This document shows, one piece after another, positions 8,852-27,675 of a stretch of DNA of 32,120 nucleotides. The notes under the pieces are model-generated. The model had not been told where the DNA came from. It saw nothing but the letters and a program-made list of their open reading frames with translations, and did not search any database. The position numbers were made by a program, and so were the translations under genes. This stretch comes from a virus (Duplodnaviria; Heunggongvirae; Uroviricota; Caudoviricetes), in the IMG/VR virus record IMGVR_UViG_2579778894_000022; one strand, given 5' to 3'. The number at the start of each line of letters is the position of its first letter. Position 1 is the first letter of the stretch.

Positions 8852-10339
8852 TTACAGAATGAACTGAACTTGTGCCGCGAAAATGCGGAACTGGTTAATC
8901 AGATTCGGGCCGCAAAGCACATCAAGACGGTCTTTGTCGTCCTTGTTACGTGCCACATACAGCTCCTCTTTGAACGTGTCGAAATCCTCGACCAGTCCGG
9001 CGTTTTCCCATTCTTCAAACAGTGCCAGCAGCTCCGTTTTGATCACGGATGGCGTCACCACGGCCTGACCGGTGGCAAAGCGGGTGCCATCACTTGCCAG
9101 CTTGTAGTTCGGGAATTTCTGCGTGATGCGGGTTCGCAGTGAATAACGCAGATAACTCAGCGTGGCGATGGTATTCACGTTCAGATAAGACGGATCACTG
9201 TCACCGTACTTGTTTGTGCGGTACATCGTGATCATGCGTTCAATCTGCATTTCACCACCATCATTCACGTTAAACGTGGAGATGCCGTCAAACAGCAGCG
9301 CATTACGTTCTGACCAGGTGAAACGATCCCCCACCGCAGGCGGCATTCTTCCGGGCAACGTCAGCGTCTGGAGAGGACGCGCCGGGTCGATGGAAAGCGC
9401 CTGGCTGGCAACGGCACACAGTGTGGCGGCGTACAGATATGACGGTTCCGGTGCACCGGCAATCCCCATACAGGAGATCAGATGATCATTACGACTGACA
9501 CCAAACGTGGAAATATCCCCATACGTGCCGGACAGCACTGTCACAGCAAAGCCATCAGCCTGATTGACCGGTCCCCAGCGTTCCTGCAATTCAGTGCGTA
9601 ACAGATTCAGGTTCGGTTCATCGGTATAGGGCATCACAATATATTTGTATTGCAGATCGCCCATTCCCGCGATACTTGCGCTGATATCCGGGTTGCCATT
9701 TTTACCGGAGGCGGCTTTGAATGCCGTGATAATCCCGTAAGGGGTGGTTTCACCCGCGTAATAGTTCCAGCGCACATCCACGGCAGATAATGCACCCGTA
9801 AATTTTGCACTCAGAACCACATCTGCATGGGTGTCATCATCTCCGCTGTCTGCGCGAACTTCTGCCGTCACCGGTAAATCCGGCTGGCCTTTGATTCGGG
9901 CAACCAGCAGGTCAGCCAGCGCAGCCCCTTTTGTACCTGCTGCGACGGATACCGCCAGTCGCTGACCGGCAATATAGGTCACAAGCGAGCCGTTTTCGCC
10001 TGCCGTTCCTGACAGTGAGATTTCACCGACAGCAGCATTACCGGTGCCGTTTCCCTGCGGGATACACCACAGCTCCGCCACGCGGTTAGCGTTCAGGAAT
10101 GCATCTGCCATCAGTGCCAGCATGGAACCCTGACCAAACGCCGCACTGGCCTGTGAGCCGGAACGGATACGGACAGGCACGTTCGGTGCGGCACTGGCTT
10201 TACTTCCGCTTTGCCCGAACATCAGCACGCGCTGGCGGGGAGCCGGTGTTCCGCTGACGGCATTGCTGTTATCAAATTCGATATACGTCAGAGGAACGCG
10301 AACATCTGACGGGATCGCGTTAAATGAAATATCGCTCAT
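8852..10339 (-). CDS. L: Contractile tail sheath protein
   Basis: 495 aa, followed by a 118 aa tube gene; size and context typical of sheath proteins. Confidence 0.85.
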
Positions 10340-10542
10340 TTCGATTTACTCCGTTTTTTCGGCGCAGCGTCGGTATCATCCGCCGTGTTTTCGGTGCTCC
10401 CGACTTCAACCACATCACCGGCTGCAAGGCGACGTATCCAGAAACTGTTACGGGGCTTTTCTTCTCCCTCCGGAGCCAGTAATTTCATCGTGAGCGGGTC
10501 ACGGATGGCTTTTCCCGCTGCGGGTTTAATTTTCAGCATCAT
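10336..10542 (-). CDS. Small virion-module protein (Mu gene 38 position)
   Basis: 68 aa ORF with stop/start overlap to neighbours, Lys-rich C-terminus. Confidence 0.55.
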
Positions 10543-17474: not shown

Positions 17475-19129
17475 TACCAGCCCCCTCGTTCAAACTGGTG
17501 ATAATCATCAAAATCATCGTTATCAACATCATCACCACGGTGGCGTGGTGGCAGCGCCTGTATGCTGTCCTCGTCGATAACAAAACCATTCATATAAGAC
17601 GCCCTGACAGCCATACAGAGCGCCACGGCAAAGTCGCCATGTCGTCGGCCTTTACCGCCTTCATCTTTTGTGCGCCCCTTATCAATCTGCGGAATACCTT
17701 TGTCCACCTTGATGTGGAGCAGGTCATCAAGTGTGGTCTGGTGCCGGGCAATCGTGATGTTCTGCGCTTCAAACTCGCCTTTCAGTTTTGGCATCCACTC
17801 CTGATACCAGGATGCGGTCAGATTCACACAGTCGATCATCTCCGGGCCATAAATCAGACGGGCGGCTTCTGCCAGATAACCGCCGTTACCGGTGGCATCA
17901 AATGCAGCGCCGGTAAAACGGGGCAAACGGGACAGAATGAATAAAAGGATTTGTCGCTGCTGGTCATAGGTCACATTACGCAGCTCCACGCGGAAACATT
18001 CGCGTTTGCGTAAGTCAGGAGTGATGGCAAGCGGCACAAACACCGACAGGTCGCCACGGCGTGCAAAGTCTTCGCCCAGTACGTGTTTATTGAGCGGCGA
18101 CAGCGCATCGAGCAACGGGAGCAGCTCCTGTTCACACCAGTCCTGAACGATGCCGTGGCGCATTTGTGGTGTCAGCGATTCAAAATCGTCCGGGGCTTCA
18201 AAACGCAGAATCGGGATATCCCGCGCTGGCGTCATGGCGGCTTCAATCAGCACGCGTGACAGATAAGCGCCCCCGGATTTTTTAGGAATGCAGCCGTATT
18301 CCTCGTCGGCACTCTCTTTATTCGGCGCATTCCGGTACAGGCCATCACGCCAGGCTTTTTCCGCTTCCGGCGACCACGGCTGATTCGTGACGTAACAGAT
18401 ACGTCGGTACAACCCGTCAGCGATGGCATCATCCAGCGTGATGCGGTGAACGCTGTAATCCTTGCGCCCCTCGCGCGCATCCTGAATGTACTGGTTAAAC
18501 AGGTTATCGACGCCGTTATGTGTCGATATGATCCGCACGTTGGCACCCCACATGGTGAGAGCAAAAGCCGCTTTCAGGAGTTCGTCCAGGGCTTCATGAA
18601 ATGCCGCCTCATCAATCACCACGTCCCCCTGCAAACCACGCAGGTTAGACGGACGGCTTGACAGCGCCTGCACCTTAAATCCGCTGTTAGGGAAACGGAT
18701 CATATAAGTGAGGATTTCTTCTTTTTTGTCGCTGTCCCAGAAGGTCTGCTCCCAGACATCAGCCTTTGCCAGCTGGTTAAAGGCGCGGGCAAACAGGGCA
18801 CAGGCGGCGATATATTCCAGCGCCATTTCCTGACGGGAACCCACATAAAAGACGTTGCGACCGCCACGGCGGCGCGGCTTTGCTGCCGTCATGACATTGC
18901 GGCCCGCTTCGGCCCATGTCAGACCGGTACGACGGGATTTTTCAGCGATGCAAATCTGGCTTTCATCCTCAAACCAGCGGCGCTGATAACCCAGGAAAAC
19001 CGGTTCATTGCGGGGCTGTGCTTCACCGATATCGGTCACGATATTCACGCCGAGCAGTTCGGCTTCCTCACGCAGGTTGATTTTGCGGGGCGCATGAAGG
19101 GCTTTAAGGTTGTTTTCTCTGGTGTTCAT
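17474..19129 (-). CDS. Terminase large subunit (Mu gene 28 position)
   Basis: 551 aa from the ATG at 19129 (MNTRENNLKALHAP...), which has an upstream GAGGG and sits 8 nt after the preceding stop. Deviant Walker A-like AEKSRRTGLT. The ORF track's 615 aa version is an upstream extension overlapping the previous gene. Confidence 0.85.
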   Translation of the reverse strand: MNTRENNLKALHAPRKINLREEAELLGVNIVTDIGEAQPRNEPVFLGYQRRWFEDESQICIAEKSRRTGLTWAEAGRNVMTAAKPRRRGGRNVFYVGSRQEMALEYIAACALFARAFNQLAKADVWEQTFWDSDKKEEILTYMIRFPNSGFKVQALSSRPSNLRGLQGDVVIDEAAFHEALDELLKAAFALTMWGANVRIISTHNGVDNLFNQYIQDAREGRKDYSVHRITLDDAIADGLYRRICYVTNQPWSPEAEKAWRDGLYRNAPNKESADEEYGCIPKKSGGAYLSRVLIEAAMTPARDIPILRFEAPDDFESLTPQMRHGIVQDWCEQELLPLLDALSPLNKHVLGEDFARRGDLSVFVPLAITPDLRKRECFRVELRNVTYDQQRQILLFILSRLPRFTGAAFDATGNGGYLAEAARLIYGPEMIDCVNLTASWYQEWMPKLKGEFEAQNITIARHQTTLDDLLHIKVDKGIPQIDKGRTKDEGGKGRRHGDFAVALCMAVRASYMNGFVIDEDSIQALPPRHRGDDVDNDDFDDYHQFERGGW

Positions 19130-19136
19130 AACCCTC

Positions 19137-19712
19137 TCATGCCTTACCCAGCAGCACATCACGGATACGCTGCTCCAGCTCTTCGCTGATGCCATCCTGC
19201 CCGCGCAGTTCTTCACTGACGGCGTTTGCCGCTTCTTCTGCGAATGCCTGGCGGATTTCTTTCTCGCGCCGGTGGCTGGACATTGCCGTGGATTCCAGAC
19301 GCTGTGCCGCCAGCATGGCATTTTTCAGCAGGTCAATATCCACGTCAGATTCCGGGTTTTCGATTTGCCGCATCATGGCCTTAAAAAGCTGGCTGCGGGC
19401 CATTTCCAGAATCAGCTTTGTGGTTTCTCCCATTGGCTTGTCGCCAAGTTCTGCGGTCAGTGCTGACGTCATTTCACGCATCTGTCGCAGGTTATGGCCT
19501 ACCTGCTCGACGTTCGTCGCGTAACGGTTCAGACCGGAACGGGAGAGTTTCATCTCATCCGGCAGGCCAGCGTCTTCAATCAGTGCGTTAATTTCTTCCA
19601 GAATGCGGGCCTGTGGGATCGCTTTATCACGCAGCATTTCATGCAGCGTTTTACGTACGTTTTCCGGCAGTAAATCCACTTTTGAAGCCCGGCCCCGTGT
19701 TTTCCTGTCCAT
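19137..19712 (-). CDS. Putative terminase small subunit / DNA-packaging protein (Mu gene 27 position)
   Basis: 191 aa from the ATG at 19712 (AGGAGG 4 nt upstream); helical, charged; immediately upstream of the large terminase. Confidence 0.6.
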   Translation of the reverse strand: MDRKTRGRASKVDLLPENVRKTLHEMLRDKAIPQARILEEINALIEDAGLPDEMKLSRSGLNRYATNVEQVGHNLRQMREMTSALTAELGDKPMGETTKLILEMARSQLFKAMMRQIENPESDVDIDLLKNAMLAAQRLESTAMSSHRREKEIRQAFAEEAANAVSEELRGQDGISEELEQRIRDVLLGKA

Positions 19713-19723
19713 CACGCCTCCTG

Positions 19724-20014
19724 TCATGCACGGGGACGAGGACGCTTGACACCGGCAACGCGGGCACGACCTTCTGCCACATCCTGACCTCGGGAGGTCA
19801 GCGTTACGACATAAAAGCCGCGCAGGTTTTCCACGGTGACCAGTTGCTGCTCTGCCAGCCAGTCAATCTGGCCGCGAACCACATCGCGGGAAACGTTGTG
19901 TCCGTATGCATCCAGACAGTCCTGAAGGATGGATTCGTTTGCTTCGTTATTGCAGTCCATCAGGGAACGCAGGATGACCAGACGACGGTCTTCGGTCAGA
20001 ATATCGTTAATCAT
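19724..20014 (-). CDS. Small winged-helix-like protein (Mu gene 26 position)
   Basis: 96 aa ORF with overlapping stop/start to neighbours. Confidence 0.5.
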   Translation of the reverse strand: MINDILTEDRRLVILRSLMDCNNEANESILQDCLDAYGHNVSRDVVRGQIDWLAEQQLVTVENLRGFYVVTLTSRGQDVAEGRARVAGVKRPRPRA

Positions 20015-20310
20015 GAATTACTCCGGTTTACTGCGTTTTCAAGCAGCAGCTCCAGTTGATGGGAAAATGACTGCACCCGCTGGGACAGCACCCGGATATC
20101 GCCGGACAGCTCTGCAATTCGCAGGCGCATTTCGTGTACATCTTCTGTGCCAGGGATGCTGGCGTAGCGGGTTTCCATTTCGGTCATCCGGTTTTCAAGA
20201 CGCTCCACACGCTCAGTGCTGGCAAAACTACGACGCATTGCCCAGACGGCCCCACCGGCCACAACAGGCAACAGGTAAGGCCATAACGCTAAAACTGAAA
20301 TCAAATCCAT
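20011..20310 (-). CDS. Membrane-anchored coiled-coil protein, candidate lysis regulator (Mu gene 25 position)
   Basis: ATG at 20310 overlaps the upstream stop (TAATG) with GGAG upstream. N-terminal hydrophobic helix LISVLALWPYLLPVVAGGAVWAM followed by a heptad-like charged region. Confidence 0.55.
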   Translation of the reverse strand: MDLISVLALWPYLLPVVAGGAVWAMRRSFASTERVERLENRMTEMETRYASIPGTEDVHEMRLRIAELSGDIRVLSQRVQSFSHQLELLLENAVNRSNS

Positions 20311-20504
20311 TATTCTGCTCCACGGCACCAGTGGCAGTAGTTCGCCATCGGCTGCTGTCTCAGCACATCAGGCCGCAGCTCACGACCGCAACCGGCACAC
20401 AATACAGGCGGGTCATACGCCGCCGGGCGGGGAATATCATGGGTATCCCCCTGCCAGAGTTCAGCGAGCAGCAGCGCCACCGCCCGGTTCTGGTCTTCGT
20501 TCAT
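20310..20504 (-). CDS. Small zinc-finger protein (Mu gene 24 position)
   Basis: 64 aa; C-x2-C ... C-x2-C (CAGCGRE...CHWC); RBS AAGGAAAG upstream of the ATG. Confidence 0.55.
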   Translation of the reverse strand: MNEDQNRAVALLLAELWQGDTHDIPRPAAYDPPVLCAGCGRELRPDVLRQQPMANYCHWCRGAE

Positions 20505-20802
20505 AAATTTCTTTCCTTCGGGTCTCCTGTTCCCGGACTGATGCCTTGTCGCGGTTGCACTGCCCGAGCGCCATCAACAGGTCAGCATTCCAGAGAAGGG
20601 ATGCTCCCCACGTCAGGGGCTGTGGCATGGGCGGAACGGGCGTTGCTTCCGTCAGTTCTGCATCAGTTTCGGGCAGGATCACCACCGATGGCACGGGTGC
20701 GTTTTTCGAGTTCCCGCAACCTGTCAGCAGCAACGGCAGGCACAGGACGAGTGCTGCAATTGTCACCGGTAATGGCGGTTGTAATTTTTTGTTTTGCATC
20801 AT
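20461..20802 (-). CDS. o-spanin (outer-membrane lipoprotein spanin subunit), overlapped with the i-spanin gene
   Basis: Internal ATG-ATG at 20802 inside the i-spanin gene in another frame. Signal peptide with lipobox LLLTGC, then a Pro-rich mature region. 113 aa to the stop; the C-terminal extent is less certain than the start. Confidence 0.55.
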   Translation of the reverse strand: MMQNKKLQPPLPVTIAALVLCLPLLLTGCGNSKNAPVPSVVILPETDAELTEATPVPPMPQPLTWGASLLWNADLLMALGQCNRDKASVREQETRRKEIYERRPEPGGGAAAR

Positions 20803-21049
20803 GATGTTCTGTCTCGTCTGCCAGCCGTGCGGCACGATTTGCGGCACGGATAGCGGAAAATACCTGCATCGTCTGTTCCTGACCGTGTAACAACCATTCA
20901 GCCGTGTGGCGGGCCTGTTGCTCCGTCTGTAATTTACGGCGCAGCGTCTGGTTATCGTGGCGGGTGCTGTCCAGCCTGTGCCACAACACCCCGGACAGAA
21001 CGGCGGCAAACACGGCTGCCAGCAGTAAACTTTTACTGGCGAAGGTCAT
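20663..21049 (-). CDS. i-spanin (inner-membrane spanin subunit, Rz-like)
   Basis: ATG at 21049 overlaps the lys stop with GGGGG upstream. N-terminal transmembrane helix SLLLAAVFAAVLSGVLW then a charged helical periplasmic domain; embedded o-spanin gene. Confidence 0.7.
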   Translation of the reverse strand: MTFASKSLLLAAVFAAVLSGVLWHRLDSTRHDNQTLRRKLQTEQQARHTAEWLLHGQEQTMQVFSAIRAANRAARLADETEHHDAKQKITTAITGDNCSTRPVPAVAADRLRELEKRTRAIGGDPARN

Positions 21050-21552
21050 CCGCCCCCCCTGATATTCCAGATAGCCATTTCCACTTCGCGACGGTTCATC
21101 AGTCCTTTCCATTTATGGCCTGCGGCAAACACCCAGCGGGCCATCTGGTCACGCGCTCCGGCGTAATCACCGGCATTGAGTTTTTTCAGCAGCGTTGATT
21201 TACTGAATGCGGTAACACCGGTGTTGAAAATAAACGTTGCCAGCGCCGTTTTCTGATATGGCGTCAGCGGCACTCTGACAAGACGATCGATTGCCGCATA
21301 AACCGGTTTTAAATCACTGTCGAGAAAAGCCATACACTCCGCATGGCTGTAACGGCGCATTTCGATATCCGGCCCGGTATGTCCCACACAGACCGTAAGC
21401 ACACCGGCAATATCGCGGTAAGGCATATAAGCGATATTTTCCAGATGGATCAGAGACTGACGGGTCATTTCCTGATAACCACCCACACCGCCACCGGCAA
21501 TCGTTGCCGCCAGCAGTGCTGCTTTCAGTTTTTTTGGTATCCCCGCCATCAT
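21046..21552 (-). CDS. lys: SAR endolysin (T4-lysozyme-like, GH24-type)
   Basis: N-terminal weakly hydrophobic Gly/Ala-rich signal-anchor-release segment (KAALLAATIAGGGVGGY) followed by a Glu-8aa-Asp-5aa-Thr catalytic spacing (HLENIAYMPYRDIAGVLT). Confidence 0.85.
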   Translation of the reverse strand: MMAGIPKKLKAALLAATIAGGGVGGYQEMTRQSLIHLENIAYMPYRDIAGVLTVCVGHTGPDIEMRRYSHAECMAFLDSDLKPVYAAIDRLVRVPLTPYQKTALATFIFNTGVTAFSKSTLLKKLNAGDYAGARDQMARWVFAAGHKWKGLMNRREVEMAIWNIRGGG

Positions 21553-21643
21553 GCTTCCCTGAAAAAATGCTCTGATGGCAGTCTAAAAAATCAGATGGCA
21601 GGTGCGGGATTATGGTGACAGGAAATAACCGGCAGGATGCCGG
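21553..21643 (-). promoter_or_regulatory. C-lys intergenic region: candidate middle-transcript terminator and C-dependent late promoter
   Basis: Stem-loop CCGGCA-tcc-TGCCGG plus TTATTT directly after the C stop. Contains the 10-mer AGGTGCGGGA (plus strand 21600..21609) that is also present upstream of I. Confidence 0.5.
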
Positions 21644-22066
21644 TTATTTCAGGCTTTCAGGTGAGAACAGATCAGGCTGATGACGTCGTGTATGCAGCTT
21701 TCTCTGGCGGGCAATAATCTGGTAGATCTGCGGCTGGGACAGGCGATACTGGCGACGCAGTTCTTCCATGTTACGACCATTGAACTGGCAGTAAAGCAAA
21801 TCGTCGCGTAACGCGGTCAGGATCGTATCGCCGCAGGGGATGTAAAACTGCCGCCCGCCCAGAAAACAGGACAGGGCAACGGCCTGTTTACGGGCAAGCT
21901 CACGGGGATTGCTGACGTTCTGGCGTTTCAGTTCGTTTTCCAGAACATCAATCAGATCAACCACCGAACGGGGCCAGCGTGACTCCAGTTCCGGGGCCGG
22001 GATGTTATCAATATGTCCGATTAACTGGCGAATTGCCGGATCGTGTTCAAATAAATCATGCTGCAT
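21644..22066 (-). CDS. C: Late gene transcription activator C (Mor/C family)
   Basis: 140 aa; clear paralogy to Mor visible in the sequence (YIPCGDTILTALRDDLLYCQFNGRNMEELRRQYRLSQPQIYQIIA versus Mor YIPRGQVLDSLIRDLRIWNDFNGRNVHELAIRHGVTFNTVYKAIR); HTH at the C-terminus. Confidence 0.9.
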   Translation of the reverse strand: MQHDLFEHDPAIRQLIGHIDNIPAPELESRWPRSVVDLIDVLENELKRQNVSNPRELARKQAVALSCFLGGRQFYIPCGDTILTALRDDLLYCQFNGRNMEELRRQYRLSQPQIYQIIARQRKLHTRRHQPDLFSPESLK

Positions 22067-22106
22067 ATTTTCCCCCGGTTAACAGACAGAAAGATACACC
22101 ACGGCA

Positions 22107-22337
22107 CTACTGAATTTTCTGTACATGGTATTTTTCTCTGTAACGCCGGCAATGGTGGATAATTTCTGGCATATCAACGGACTGCCAGCCTTTCATGTAA
22201 TAACTTCCGTGGGTGCCATCGTGCCCTGTGTAATCCATTGGCTTTGGTGGTGGGCCTCCGGCCTCCCGATGTAATACCTCCTGTCGTAAACGTTCACGCC
22301 TGCCGAACTGAAAGGACGCATCCCACCCTTTACCCAT
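22107..22337 (-). CDS. Small middle-operon protein, function unknown
   Basis: 76 aa from the ATG at 22337 (GGGAGG 6 nt upstream), overlapping the preceding stop by 8 nt; His/Arg-rich. Confidence 0.45.
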   Translation of the reverse strand: MGKGWDASFQFGRRERLRQEVLHREAGGPPPKPMDYTGHDGTHGSYYMKGWQSVDMPEIIHHCRRYREKYHVQKIQ

Positions 22338-22890
22338 GCAGAACCTCCCGACAGGCGCTGGCGAGCAGATCCAGACGGTTAAACCAGCCATTCAGATATT
22401 TCCCCTGCGAGGCACTGGATTTGATAATCCCTGCGTAATAGCGGGAACGACGCAGGAAGCACTGCAACAGCAGCCAGTCAGTATCGGCACGCAGAACGGC
22501 TGCGCGTGTGTTTTTACCGACGATGCCATCATCATCAACACCTGCTGCCGCCTGGAGGATCTGAATCGCGCGTTTAACACCGTGCTGAACGGCAGCATCA
22601 AAAACGAATAAGGAAACGCCATCAGGCCATTCGTTACACTTTGCCGCCAGCCAGTAATCACGCCAGTAGATCTGCGCCGCCTGCTCGCGGGTTAAATCCT
22701 TAATGCGGGTATCAGGTTTTCCGTCACCGTTAACATCGGTTTTGCCATCAATAACGCCGTCGCGACGGTCAGAAATACCGTATTTCGTTTCGCCGCCACG
22801 GTCGGCAGGATCATTAACATAGCCACCTTCAACATCAGGGCGTATAACGAAATTCAGCGAATGAAGGAATGCAGGGGAAAACTCAGGCAT
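22330..22890 (-). CDS. GH108-family muramidase-like protein with C-terminal peptidoglycan-binding domain (middle operon)
   Basis: N-terminal EGGYVNDPADRGGETKYGI, the signature of glycoside hydrolase family 108 as I recall it, and C-terminal DGIVGKNT...RYYAGI...GW.NR consistent with PG_binding_3. Strong RBS AGGAGGG. First gene after the mor terminator. Confidence 0.75.
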   Translation of the reverse strand: MPEFSPAFLHSLNFVIRPDVEGGYVNDPADRGGETKYGISDRRDGVIDGKTDVNGDGKPDTRIKDLTREQAAQIYWRDYWLAAKCNEWPDGVSLFVFDAAVQHGVKRAIQILQAAAGVDDDGIVGKNTRAAVLRADTDWLLLQCFLRRSRYYAGIIKSSASQGKYLNGWFNRLDLLASACREVLHG

Positions 22891-22946
22891 GTTGCCCTCC
22901 TGTCATGAACGTTTTATCGTCACAACAGAATATTGAGGGCGTAAAA
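22891..22946 (-). promoter_or_regulatory. Candidate middle promoter region (Mor-dependent Pm)
   Basis: Short gap between the mor terminator dyad and the first middle-operon RBS. Promoter assignment is by position and recalled Mu biology, not from a recognisable -35/-10. Confidence 0.4.
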
Positions 22947-22972
22947 AAAGCCGGATTAACCGGCTTTACTGT
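22940..22972 (-). terminator. Rho-independent terminator immediately after mor (end of early transcript); dyad may double as the Mor-binding element
   Basis: Minus strand reads TAA-ACAGT-AAAGCCGG-TTAAT-CCGGCTTT-TTTTTAC: an 8 bp GC-rich stem, 5 nt loop and a 7-U run starting 5 nt after the mor stop. Confidence 0.7.
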
Positions 22973-23362
22973 TTAAAACAAAGGGGGGGAATACTGACGA
23001 TACTTTATACGCCGCATTCGTCGGATGGCTTTATAGACTGTGTTAAATGTCACACCATGACGGATTGCCAGTTCGTGAACATTGCGACCGTTGAAATCAT
23101 TCCAGATACGCAAATCCCGAATAAGCGAATCCAGAACCTGACCGCGTGGAATGTAGACCTGACCGCCGCCCAGATGCTTACAGATAGCCACAACAATCTC
23201 CAGTGAATGGGCCGGGTCAACACCTAACCGGGACAATTCCCCGCGCAGTAAATCGTTCAGCTCCGCCAGCAGTGCCGGAAAGCGTGACGTATCCTCTGCG
23301 GGATTGTCAAGATGTGCCAGGATGGTGTCATCCTGCAAATCACCAAATAAATCTTCCGTCAT
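22973..23362 (-). CDS. mor: Middle operon regulator Mor
   Basis: 129 aa; paralog of C; ATG overlaps the gemA stop; last gene before the early terminator. Confidence 0.9.
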   Translation of the reverse strand: MTEDLFGDLQDDTILAHLDNPAEDTSRFPALLAELNDLLRGELSRLGVDPAHSLEIVVAICKHLGGGQVYIPRGQVLDSLIRDLRIWNDFNGRNVHELAIRHGVTFNTVYKAIRRMRRIKYRQYSPPLF

Positions 23363-23910
23363 TGTGCCATCCTCCGTGTCTTTCTGGCACGGGCATAAGC
23401 CGCCGTCATGGCATCATAGCCGCGCAGTTCACGCCCGGACGGACTGACTGGCAACGGAAGCCCGTGACGGGAAAAGGCTTCACGAATACAGCGGATATGC
23501 CACTGCTTGAGAGTTTCGAGAACAATCAACAGGGTGTCGCCATGACACCACGCCAGCGTGGAAACACCCTGTCCGCCATTACGTTTCGCCGTCAGGCGCT
23601 GAACATATTTATCCAGCGCCACATCACCGCCATCGGTAATAAAACCGTCTTCTGCCATCTGCTGCCAGACTTTGTATACCTTCTCGCGGGGCGTGACATG
23701 CCCCTTAAAGCGGCGACGTGGATGTTTATTCAGCTTCTTAAAGCCGCGTTCTTTCATGGCATCGAGCACCTGTTCCAGTTGCGTAACCGTCAGCTCGCGG
23801 CAACTGATTTTGCCCGTTTTCTGCATCAGAAAAGCGCGGTAAGTGTCGTCGTCGAGTTGTAGCTCCCGACGGGCGACATGGATTAATTTAATCAGGGATG
23901 TGCGATTCAT
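23359..23910 (-). CDS. gemA: GemA-like early protein (host gene expression modulation)
   Basis: 183 aa ORF immediately upstream of mor with GGAGG 7 nt before the ATG; position matches Mu gemA. Confidence 0.75.
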   Translation of the reverse strand: MNRTSLIKLIHVARRELQLDDDTYRAFLMQKTGKISCRELTVTQLEQVLDAMKERGFKKLNKHPRRRFKGHVTPREKVYKVWQQMAEDGFITDGGDVALDKYVQRLTAKRNGGQGVSTLAWCHGDTLLIVLETLKQWHIRCIREAFSRHGLPLPVSPSGRELRGYDAMTAAYARARKTRRMAQ

Positions 23911-24184
23911 GATCGTACCTCCGGAAAGAGGCGGTGCTGCAACACCGCCTGAATTTACACATCAATCAGAGAGGATTTTATGGAAAATAATGTACAACCT
24001 TATGATGTTGCAGGTTATGCGATTGCATCAGCACTGGTGCGCCTTCTGGTGAAGAAGGCGATCATCACCGCAGAAGAGGGCCAGGCCATTTTCAGCTCTT
24101 CAGCAGAGATTTTAAAAGATGCGCCTGCAATAAGAACAAGCCGCCGCGAAAACATGCAACTGTCAAAGATCATGGAAGACATTA

Positions 24185-24487
24185 TCAGTTCGTTAGACCC
24201 AGATGCTGACGGATCTCAAAAGCCTCAAACACATGAGCGTCAGTAACAATATCCTGGTCTGATAACCCCAGCCTGCGGCGGATGTACTCCTCGCGGGCTG
24301 TTTCATTTTGCAGTGCCACTACTGTTTCCAGACGATTCATTTCGCGGTTGATAATGTCACGGACTTCTCTGGCGGTGAGATTATGCTTAATACCATATTC
24401 AACGATAGCGCGAACACGTTCCAGCATCCCTTTTTCAGCCATGACGTTATCAATATTAAGGGGAGTAAATTTATCTTCATTGTTCAT
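24185..24487 (-). CDS. Semi-essential early region protein, function unknown
   Basis: 100 aa; ATG overlaps the upstream stop (ATGA). Confidence 0.6.
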   Translation of the reverse strand: MNNEDKFTPLNIDNVMAEKGMLERVRAIVEYGIKHNLTAREVRDIINREMNRLETVVALQNETAREEYIRRRLGLSDQDIVTDAHVFEAFEIRQHLGLTN

Positions 24488-24792
24488 TTTGCGGCCCTCA
24501 GAATAAATTCAGGATAAAATTTCAGACTCATTTGCCGTAACACATCCAGTGCAGCAACGGCTGCTGATTTATCGTTGCCATCAGCAATAGCGCGGAGATT
24601 TTCAATAATCCAGTGAGGACTCAGTGACTCAGCAATAATGCCAAACCGGTACGCCATGACCTCATCAATAGCTTTTTCATGAGACGGCTCATATACAAAA
24701 TTCACAAAGTCATGCACTTCTTTTTTCGGCAAACCACCGGCAATCAGCAGGGCGGCAAGCTCTTCTGATTTTGAAAATACACCATTATTCAT
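24484..24792 (-). CDS. Semi-essential early region protein, function unknown
   Basis: 102 aa from the ATG at 24792, 1 nt after the upstream stop with a GGTGA RBS; the ORF track's GTG at 24807 lacks an RBS. Confidence 0.55.
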   Translation of the reverse strand: MNNGVFSKSEELAALLIAGGLPKKEVHDFVNFVYEPSHEKAIDEVMAYRFGIIAESLSPHWIIENLRAIADGNDKSAAVAALDVLRQMSLKFYPEFILRAAK

Positions 24793-24793
24793 G

Positions 24794-24976
24794 TCACTCA
24801 CCTTCACAATTCATGCACGCCGTGTCATCGCCCATATCGCAGTGGTTACATTTCTGCCCGCCACAATGAGGGCACTCTTTCAGATATTCAGGGGATTCAT
24901 TACCGCAGGTCGGGCATTCCTGTTTCACCGTGGTAAATTTCCCCAGCCACGAATACGATGTTTCATTGTTTTCCAT
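24794..24976 (-). CDS. Small zinc-ribbon protein with four CxxC motifs
   Basis: 60 aa containing CPTC, CPHC, CNHC, CMNC; GGAGG 7 nt upstream of the ATG. Confidence 0.6.
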   Translation of the reverse strand: MENNETSYSWLGKFTTVKQECPTCGNESPEYLKECPHCGGQKCNHCDMGDDTACMNCEGE

Positions 24977-27405: not shown

Positions 27406-27675
27406 TTAATGTTTAACCGCATTCACCGGATGTGGTACTAAATCACATTCAGCTTCCATACCCACTTTCTTCATAGTGGTCAGCATCTCATCTTTGGCCT
27501 TTTTAATAATTTCAGGAGCCATAGTCAGGACGATATTTGCCAGTAAATCATGAGGCCCGGTATTTTCCGTTGGCGAGATATCTGCAAGACATGCTTTTGC
27601 ATCCAGAACTTCTCTGCGCCCATTGCAACTGTCACTACTTTCCAGCCATGTAAACTCAAAGATAACCTTTGCCAT
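27406..27675 (-). CDS. Semi-essential early region protein, function unknown
   Basis: 89 aa ORF with short intergenic spacers on both sides. Confidence 0.55.
   Translation of the reverse strand: MAKVIFEFTWLESSDSCNGRREVLDAKACLADISPTENTGPHDLLANIVLTMAPEIIKKAKDEMLTTMKKVGMEAECDLVPHPVNAVKH

Follow-up and report, generated by a model that had tools for sequence, protein, structure and literature searches.

The lysis cassette of the prophage

The window analysed here, i.e., the whole 32,120-base stretch of IMG/VR record IMGVR_UViG_2579778894_000022, is a Muvirus prophage whose genes run along the minus strand, and the subject of this study is its lysis cassette, which comprises the genes of the signal-anchor-release (SAR) endolysin gp22, the spanins gp23 and gp23.1, the small protein gp24 and the releasin gp25. 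By blastn, the window runs collinearly with phage Mu (AF083977.1) over Mu 31991 to 339 at about 98% DNA identity (95-98.5%), with three short replaced segments interrupting the alignment, and Mu c, ner, A, B, kil, gam, gemA, mor, C and gp22-gp28 are all present at full length with 93-100% identity (tblastn), including the transposable-phage genes for transposase A, B, GemA and Mor. The region 19700..23400, which holds the cassette and the genes upstream of it, is 99.3% identical over its full length to the Yersinia phages vB_YpM_5 and vB_YpM_6 and ~97% identical over 78% of its length to Mu, D108 and SfMu (megablast). In AF083977.1 the homologous Mu genes are labelled SAR endolysin, i-spanin, o-spanin and releasin, and a Mu-type lysis cassette was found in 41 of 5,426 complete E. 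coli genomes.

The endolysin was listed as an open reading frame (ORF) of 168 aa at 21046..21552, which begins with the same ATGATG as in Mu; with the second ATG as the start, as annotated in Mu (here at 21549), gp22 is a T4-lysozyme-type muramidase of 167 aa (21046..21549, minus strand). The ORF matches Pfam Phage_lysozyme (PF00959, E=1.6e-37) and a PHROG endolysin family (E=2e-51), and a pattern search places its catalytic motif at E37-X8-D46-X5-T52. The N-terminus, MAGIPKKLK, carries the basic residues K6, K7 and K9 upstream of a weakly hydrophobic stretch at residues 9-26, KAALLAATIAGGGVGGYQ, in which 5 Ala and 5 Gly occur among 18 residues; in Mu gp22 the peak 19-residue hydropathy is 1.09, under the range of normal transmembrane domains (TMDs). 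This N-terminal segment has the signature of a SAR domain and would carry no cleavable signal peptide. The protein is 98.8% identical to Mu gp22 and retains K6 and K7, to which the dependence of release on gp25 is due. By virtue of this identity, the membrane tethering and subsequent release demonstrated experimentally for Mu gp22 would carry over to the protein of the window.

The next two genes overlap. The i-spanin gp23 (20663..21049, minus strand; 128 aa, listed as an ORF of 149 aa) has an N-terminal TMD, placed at residues 1-23 by the hydropathy scan, and a helical periplasmic domain; it matches PHROG 214, an Rz-like spanin family (E=3e-34), is 96.9% identical to Mu gp23, and its 149-aa ORF has no Pfam match at E<=0.01. 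The o-spanin gp23.1 (20461..20802, minus strand; 113 aa) is a lipoprotein with the lipobox LTGC, Cys29 and a Pro-rich mature part (10 Pro in 84 residues), which matches Pfam LysC (PF23793, E=7.7e-15) and an Rz-like spanin family of PHROG (E=9e-30) and is 95.6% identical to Mu gp23.1. The two genes lie in different frames (+1) with a 140-nt overlap, and gp23.1 extends beyond the gp23 stop, an arrangement by which they are classed as a two-component spanin of overlapped architecture. Between the spanins and gp25 lies gp24 (20310..20504, minus strand), a 64-aa protein with four Cys as two CxxC pairs, 98.4% identical to Mu gp24 and assigned to PHROG 3260, a family of unknown function; the proteins at the gp24 position in Mu-like phages of Shewanella and Vibrio carry the annotation of C4 DksA/TraR zinc-finger proteins.

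The fourth gene after gp22 (gp23, gp23.1, gp24, gp25), and thus within five genes downstream of the endolysin, encodes gp25 (20011..20310, minus strand), a 99-aa protein that had been listed from a GTG as an ORF of 105 aa and is 100% identical to Mu gp25 across all 99 residues. For Mu gp25, the prototype member of DUF2730, the name releasin was introduced (Chamblee et al., 2022; mBio 13:e00813-22, PMC9239132); the protein of the window matches Pfam DUF2730 (PF10805, E=2.5e-13), a domain that covers the protein including its N-terminal TMD. This TMD spans approximately residues 4-24 (19-residue Kyte-Doolittle mean ~1.9), is preceded by ~3 residues and followed at the junction by R26-R27, and leads into a C-terminal part of 74 residues, 12 of them acidic; by the positive-inside rule, gp25 is predicted to be N-out/C-in, i.e., type I. 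Single-sequence AlphaFold2 gives helices at residues 3-49 and 56-97 with a mean pLDDT of 79, and both helices show a clean 3-4 heptad pattern in which 71% and 92% of the a/d positions, respectively, are hydrophobic (0.92 in 56-97). These results agree with the sequence-only reading of this DNA, which had described a SAR endolysin with E-8-D-5-T spacing, here borne out by the catalytic motif, the Phage_lysozyme match and the Gly/Ala-rich N-terminal stretch; spanins overlapped in different frames, with a lipobox in the second; and a 99-aa protein at 20011..20310, for which hydropathy, heptads and AlphaFold2 helices all support a TMD followed by a coiled coil. Its placement of that gene two genes downstream of the spanins is likewise accurate, with gp24 between.

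Absence of a holin candidate

All 992 ORFs of at least 30 aa in the six frames of the window were scanned with a threshold of 1.6 or more on the 19-residue Kyte-Doolittle mean, a measure that, as a control, flags Mu gp19, gp20, gp23, gp23.1 and gp25 but none of the other Mu proteins tested. Within 19000..24000 of the coding strand, the only ORFs to score are those of gp23, gp23.1 and gp25, together with out-of-frame ORFs inside mor and inside the gene of a GH108 muramidase (see below), each of which has one marginal hydrophobic segment. The scan returned no coding-strand ORF with at least two TMDs anywhere in the window; the other positives were rejected as antisense, as out-of-frame inside known genes or as single stretches in large structural proteins.

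Homology searches gave the same picture. Tblastn of the window with Mu gp19 and gp20 and with the gp19-like and gp20-like proteins of the E. coli SE11 prophage recovered nothing but the last 9 aa of gp20, and there was no match to the 110-aa and four-TMD proteins of Klebsiella Kp4866-3 or to the ~200-aa holin-like proteins of Klebsiella, Shewanella and Vibrio phages. The latter were considered as members of GTA_holin_3TM and rejected (E=0.003-0.005; 17.8-18.4 bits against a cut-off of 24.8), and because this score is below the threshold, they are termed only holin-like here. A homology between Mu gp19 and the four-TMD ORF found at the same position in Kp4866-3 was also rejected (E=0.14, not significant), the two being equivalent in position only.

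The middle operon of the window accords with these searches. Gene 19 is absent (tblastn with gp19, no match), and gene 20 survives as a remnant of 15 codons, MYRKFSSAVVYLSVC (22079..22126, minus strand); when aligned with Mu, vB_YpM_5 and elppa5, an E. coli prophage, it proves to result from an in-frame 72-bp deletion that takes out the TMD. The prophage is therefore a natural variant that lacks both genes once put forward as holin and antiholin of Mu. Since neither the hydropathy scan nor tblastn yields a candidate, the absence of a recognisable holin holds more strictly here than in Mu itself, and with gp19 and gp20, the only other membrane proteins of Mu, lost, the phage is left with gp22, gp23, gp23.1 and gp25.

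Probable lysis by the releasin pathway

The corresponding system has been dissected genetically in Mu, which has no holin, uses gp22 as a SAR endolysin and gp23/gp23.1 as spanins (Chamblee et al., 2022). Lysogens carrying 22::cam do not lyse, and a 25::cam lysogen shows no lysis until ~3 h, yet chloroform frees active gp22 from it; E. coli is lysed by gp22 and gp25 together and by neither alone; and K6A or K7A in gp22 abolishes the need for gp25 (Chamblee et al., 2022). Unrelated SAR endolysins are also released faster with gp25. In contrast to what a holin would do, constructs of genes 19, 20 and 25 are not lethal after addition of dinitrophenol (DNP), which delays rather than triggers the lysis of induced Mu lysogens, and lysis does not require genes 19 and 20 (Chamblee et al., 2022).

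This work supports the two remaining claims of the sequence-only reading, the second with a refinement. It had reported no recognisable holin in the cassette, and the TMD check by hydropathy scan and tblastn found none either. It had also cast the 20011..20310 product as a candidate regulator, with mention of a report that the Mu gene 25 product assists endolysin release: this is correct and can be referred to Chamblee et al. (2022), in which gp25 is membrane-tethered and essential for timely lysis, so that the aid to release stands while the term regulator gives way to the published role of a required releasin. Neither of the results that would have spoken against the reading, a canonical holin ORF in the cassette or a cytoplasmic gp25 with no effect on lysis, was obtained.

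The control elements are conserved as well. The C-activated late promoter Plys (21560..21626, minus strand) was assigned by homology to Mu 10403..10469 and aligns without gaps with Mu and vB_YpM_5, with 2-3 substitutions, and the late-gene activator C itself (21644..22066, minus strand), a member of the Mor family (Pfam Mor, E=9e-34), is 98.6% identical to Mu C. As K6, K7, the catalytic triad, Plys and the gene order are all kept, the published Mu mechanism would transfer by near-identity. In such a scheme, C would turn on Plys, and gp22 would be exported by Sec and held inactive in the inner membrane by its SAR domain, with K6 and K7 on the cytoplasmic side locking it there. The releasin gp25, which would expose a coiled-coil domain to the cytoplasm and almost nothing to the periplasm, would be needed for the SAR domain to leave the bilayer; the freed gp22 would then refold and degrade the peptidoglycan, and the gp23/gp23.1 spanin would disrupt the outer membrane. 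The requirement of gp25 for endolysin release and timely lysis is carried over from the identical Mu protein. Charge neutralisation, a transient channel, a protease or a host partner have been proposed for the action of gp25 (Chamblee et al., 2022), and the evidence computed here discriminates none of the four.

On every feature that can be tested at the level of sequence, the cassette belongs to the gp22/gp23/gp23.1/gp25 system of Mu. With the gene identities, the sequence features and the absence of a holin candidate observed in the window and the functional roles taken from the literature, we put at about 93% the probability that this is a Mu-relative lysis cassette working as published for Mu, i.e., with no holin.

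A GH108 muramidase in the middle operon

Upstream of C, the segment 22109..22924 does not align with Mu by blastn; Mu carries there, between mor and C, the genes of gp18, gp19 (four TMDs) and gp20 (one TMD). The segment is preceded by the conserved part of the Mor-activated middle promoter Pm together with a terminator-like hairpin after mor (22925..22980, minus strand), which can be aligned to Mu 9163..9218 and likewise to elppa5 and SE11, both E. coli prophages. The middle operon opens with a gene that is not in Mu and encodes a 186-aa muramidase with GH108 and PG_binding_3 domains (22330..22890, minus strand; PF05838, E=9e-25, and PF09374, E=7e-14) that also matches a PHROG endolysin family (E=1.4e-51). 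Its motif VEGGYVNDP..GGETKYGIS aligns with proteins from Klebsiella, Shewanella and Vibrio, and the Glu of the Glu-Gly motif is presumably the catalytic residue. The protein has no hydrophobic N-terminus, signal peptide or TMD (peak 19-residue hydropathy 0.93, internal), and no route to the periplasm, be it a partner holin, a signal or a SAR sequence, was found for it in the window. A loose analogy is provided by Salmonella TtsA, which we take to be a GH108 member. TtsA has been described as a peptidoglycan hydrolase that lacks a signal sequence and for which no holin has yet been identified.

The start of the following gene overlaps the GH108 stop. It encodes a soluble 76-aa homolog of gp18 (22107..22337, minus strand), 83% identical to Mu gp18 and belonging to PHROG 2121, a family of unknown function; gp18, gp19 and gp26 have no Pfam match. 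The GH108 protein is 100% identical in vB_YpM_5 and vB_YpM_6 and absent from Mu, D108 and SfMu, and the GH108 middle region occurs in 8 of 5,426 complete E. coli genomes. Compared with elppa5, the GH108 gene shows 13 synonymous and 0 nonsynonymous differences, and compared with SE11, 23 synonymous and 2 nonsynonymous ones; the ratio of nonsynonymous to synonymous rates (dN/dS) is 0.02-0.03 for GH108 and 0.04-0.11 for the gp18 homolog, values from which both genes are judged to be intact and under purifying selection. In the elppa5 prophage, GH108, gp18, gp19 and an unannotated gene 20 sequence stand before C and a Mu-type cassette, and the SE11 prophage has GH108, gp18, gp19-like and gp20-like genes. 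The SE11 prophage is a more distant Mu-like element (locus L009, 4873..5613) in which a C-like gene is followed by a 142-aa lysozyme with a hydrophobic N-terminus and directly thereafter by a DUF2730 gene, with no spanin or gp24 gene annotated between.

The pair formed by GH108 and gp18 recurs in the lysis-cassette position of Klebsiella Kp4866-3, Shewanella vB_SspM_MuM16-2 and Vibrio 1.028.O, where the genes of a ~200-aa protein with hydrophobic segments and then of the gp24-like, DUF2730 and gp26-like proteins come after it. Identity to the two proteins of the window is 72% and 69% in Kp4866-3 and 43% (by tblastn) and 36-37% in MuM16-2 and 1.028.O. The gp18-family genes adjoin or overlap GH108 in Kp4866-3 (locus L006, 5070..5288) and in the Shewanella and Vibrio phages (L005, 5035..5295, and L007, 5016..5279). 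In Kp4866-3, an unannotated record, the order over 4053..6791 of L006 is mor, a 110-aa multi-TMD ORF, GH108, the gp18-like gene and a four-TMD ORF, followed by the genes of a 201-aa holin-like protein, a gp24-like zinc-finger protein and DUF2730, with no gp22-type endolysin.

Two further segments of the window do not align with Mu, and each holds an early-region accessory gene. One has a 107-aa ORF between gp13 and gp14 (24484..24807, minus strand) with no Mu counterpart, and this segment aligns with vB_YpM_5; the other has an 89-aa ORF (27406..27675, minus strand) in place of Mu gp7.

Points against the Mu-type reading and alternative explanations

Several points weigh against the view that the cassette works as in Mu. 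The lysis experiments cited above were performed on Mu, and the roles given to the genes of the window are taken from them. The endolysin differs from that of Mu by V15A within the SAR stretch (AALLAATIAGGG here and AALLAVTIAGGG in Mu), which lowers the hydrophobicity of the anchor slightly and may alter the dependence on gp25, by L75F, and by a frameshifted C-terminus that reads GGG* instead of GADDLRQ*; these changes may affect membrane retention or activity. The TMD scan is a simple hydropathy threshold rather than a trained topology predictor. Finally, the window carries a second muramidase, the GH108 protein, which may contribute to lysis.

The last of these points leads to the alternative that survives best, namely that the soluble GH108 protein is a second working endolysin that reaches the cell wall via gp25, with gp25 thus serving two endolysins. 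The low dN/dS values of the intact GH108 and gp18 genes favor it, as does the location of the same pair in the lysis cassettes of Kp4866-3, MuM16-2 and 1.028.O, upstream of the DUF2730 gene. Additionally, Table S1 of Chamblee et al. (2022) pairs a Vibrio GH108 enzyme, as endolysin, with DUF2730, and the same study leaves open the role of DUF2730 for endolysins without a SAR domain. On the other side, the ~200-aa protein of the GH108-type phages could be their holin and has no homolog in the window, gp25 lacks pore-like toxicity and, in Mu, gp22 alone accounts for lysis (Chamblee et al., 2022); moreover, the GH108 gene is under the middle and not the late promoter. We therefore regard a second endolysin served by gp25 as unlikely; GH108 may act only after gp22-driven lysis.

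The distribution of the pair suggests that GH108-gp18 was part of an older transposable-phage lysis cassette of which the orphan gp18 of Mu is a remnant, and the block of C, gp22, gp23 and gp23.1 would then be a later arrival than GH108-gp18. A bolder scenario, to which we give little credence, holds that the original function of DUF2730 proteins in transposable phages was that of a partner to soluble GH108 endolysins, that gp25 or gp18 provides a holin-independent route to the wall, that gp25 here serves two endolysins and that Mu gp18 is a relic.

Less probable still is a lysis-defective prophage, disabled by one extra G in the 3' end of the endolysin gene. The run at 21053..21059 is G7 in the window and G6 in Mu and vB_YpM_5, and with the extra G the gp22 tail is altered and the gp22 stop and gp23 start come to share the sequence ATGA. 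Wherever in the 1542-base query the length difference lies, the top E. coli matches listed for it span 1540-1541 bases, each of them short of the window by one base or more. Yet only the last six residues of gp22 are altered, beyond the Pfam lysozyme match that ends at residue 158 of the 168-aa ORF; gp22 tagged with c-myc at its C-terminus is functional (Chamblee et al., 2022); and the start ATG of gp23 is untouched. Furthermore, a homopolymer sequencing error accounts for the G7 run with the same probability as a real mutation.

The least credible alternative is a cryptic holin, either an unannotated or embedded ORF or a gp19/gp20-like protein of the middle operon, with gp25 as a mere accessory: a holin-antiholin pair of gp19 and gp20 has been proposed for Mu (Samanta et al., as related by Chamblee et al., 2022), embedded genes do occur in the cassette (gp23.1 was long unannotated) and a few out-of-frame ORFs inside GH108 and mor are hydrophobic, but these are only marginally so and have no holin-annotated homologs, the window has neither gene 19 nor the TMD of gene 20 nor any coding-strand ORF with at least two TMDs, and in Mu the products of genes 19, 20 and 25 fail the DNP assay, with 19 and 20 dispensable. 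The Mu-type releasin pathway thus remains the reading that we favor for this cassette.

Comparison with known systems

Holin-less, releasin-dependent lysis is already known, as it was published for Mu in 2022, when it came as a real surprise, and is annotated in AF083977.1. The window adds another copy of this pathway with an identical releasin, and the cassette itself holds no new biology. As a natural variant that lacks gene 19 and a functional gene 20 and has plaque-forming relatives without gene 19, the prophage fits the conclusion that gp19 and gp20 are not the holin and antiholin of Mu. Only the GH108-gp18 module adds to what was published for Mu, as a modest comparative-genomics observation; a selectively kept soluble GH108 protein beside a SAR endolysin, with no holin, could be a convenient system for studying the role of DUF2730 with non-SAR endolysins. 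Of other literature, the paper on the Yersinia phages does not discuss the lysis genes or the GH108 gene, a PNAS paper of 2026 about late transcription in Mu leaves genes 18-26 unmentioned, and a preprint on LambdaSo only cites the releasin.

Among better-known lysis systems, R21/S21-68 of phage 21 and Lyz of P1 share with gp22 a weakly hydrophobic N-terminal tether and an endolysin that is active on release. These SAR-pinholin systems differ in that release follows from depolarisation by the holin, whereas the window has no holin. The pinholin of phage 21 is nevertheless able to free gp22 of Mu from the membrane (Chamblee et al., 2022).

Klebsiella Kp4866-3, Shewanella vB_SspM_MuM16-2 and Vibrio 1.028.O share with the window a GH108 and PG_binding_3 muramidase gene followed directly by a gp18-like gene, and, upstream of the terminase, genes for a DUF2730 protein, a gp26-like protein and, where gp24 would stand, a Cys-rich protein of zinc-finger type. 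Unlike the window, they have neither a gp22-type SAR endolysin nor a C gene at that position, and they encode the ~200-aa membrane protein with a weak GTA_holin_3TM match that the window lacks.

Closer to the window are vB_YpM_5 and vB_YpM_6 (MT374853, MT374854; Muvirus), which have the same middle operon with GH108 and gp18 and no gene 19. They differ in the G6 run of the endolysin gene and, in vB_YpM_5, in an intact gene 20 of 39 codons where the window has its 72-bp deletion. Both were isolated as lytic phages and lyse cultures of Yersinia pestis at 37 C, according to the paper that describes them; in their GenBank records, nearly all of these genes are labelled 'hypothetical'.

The closest experimentally characterised system is the cassette of Mu itself (22, 23, 23.1, 24 and 25; AF083977.1). 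The differences are the V15A and L75F substitutions and altered tail of gp22, the missing gene 19, the shortened gene 20 and the GH108 gene before gp18. The gene order, the overlaps and the promoter are the same; gp22, gp23, gp23.1 and gp24 are 95.6-98.8% identical to their Mu counterparts, with K6/K7, the triad and the lipobox retained, and the releasin gp25 is identical.

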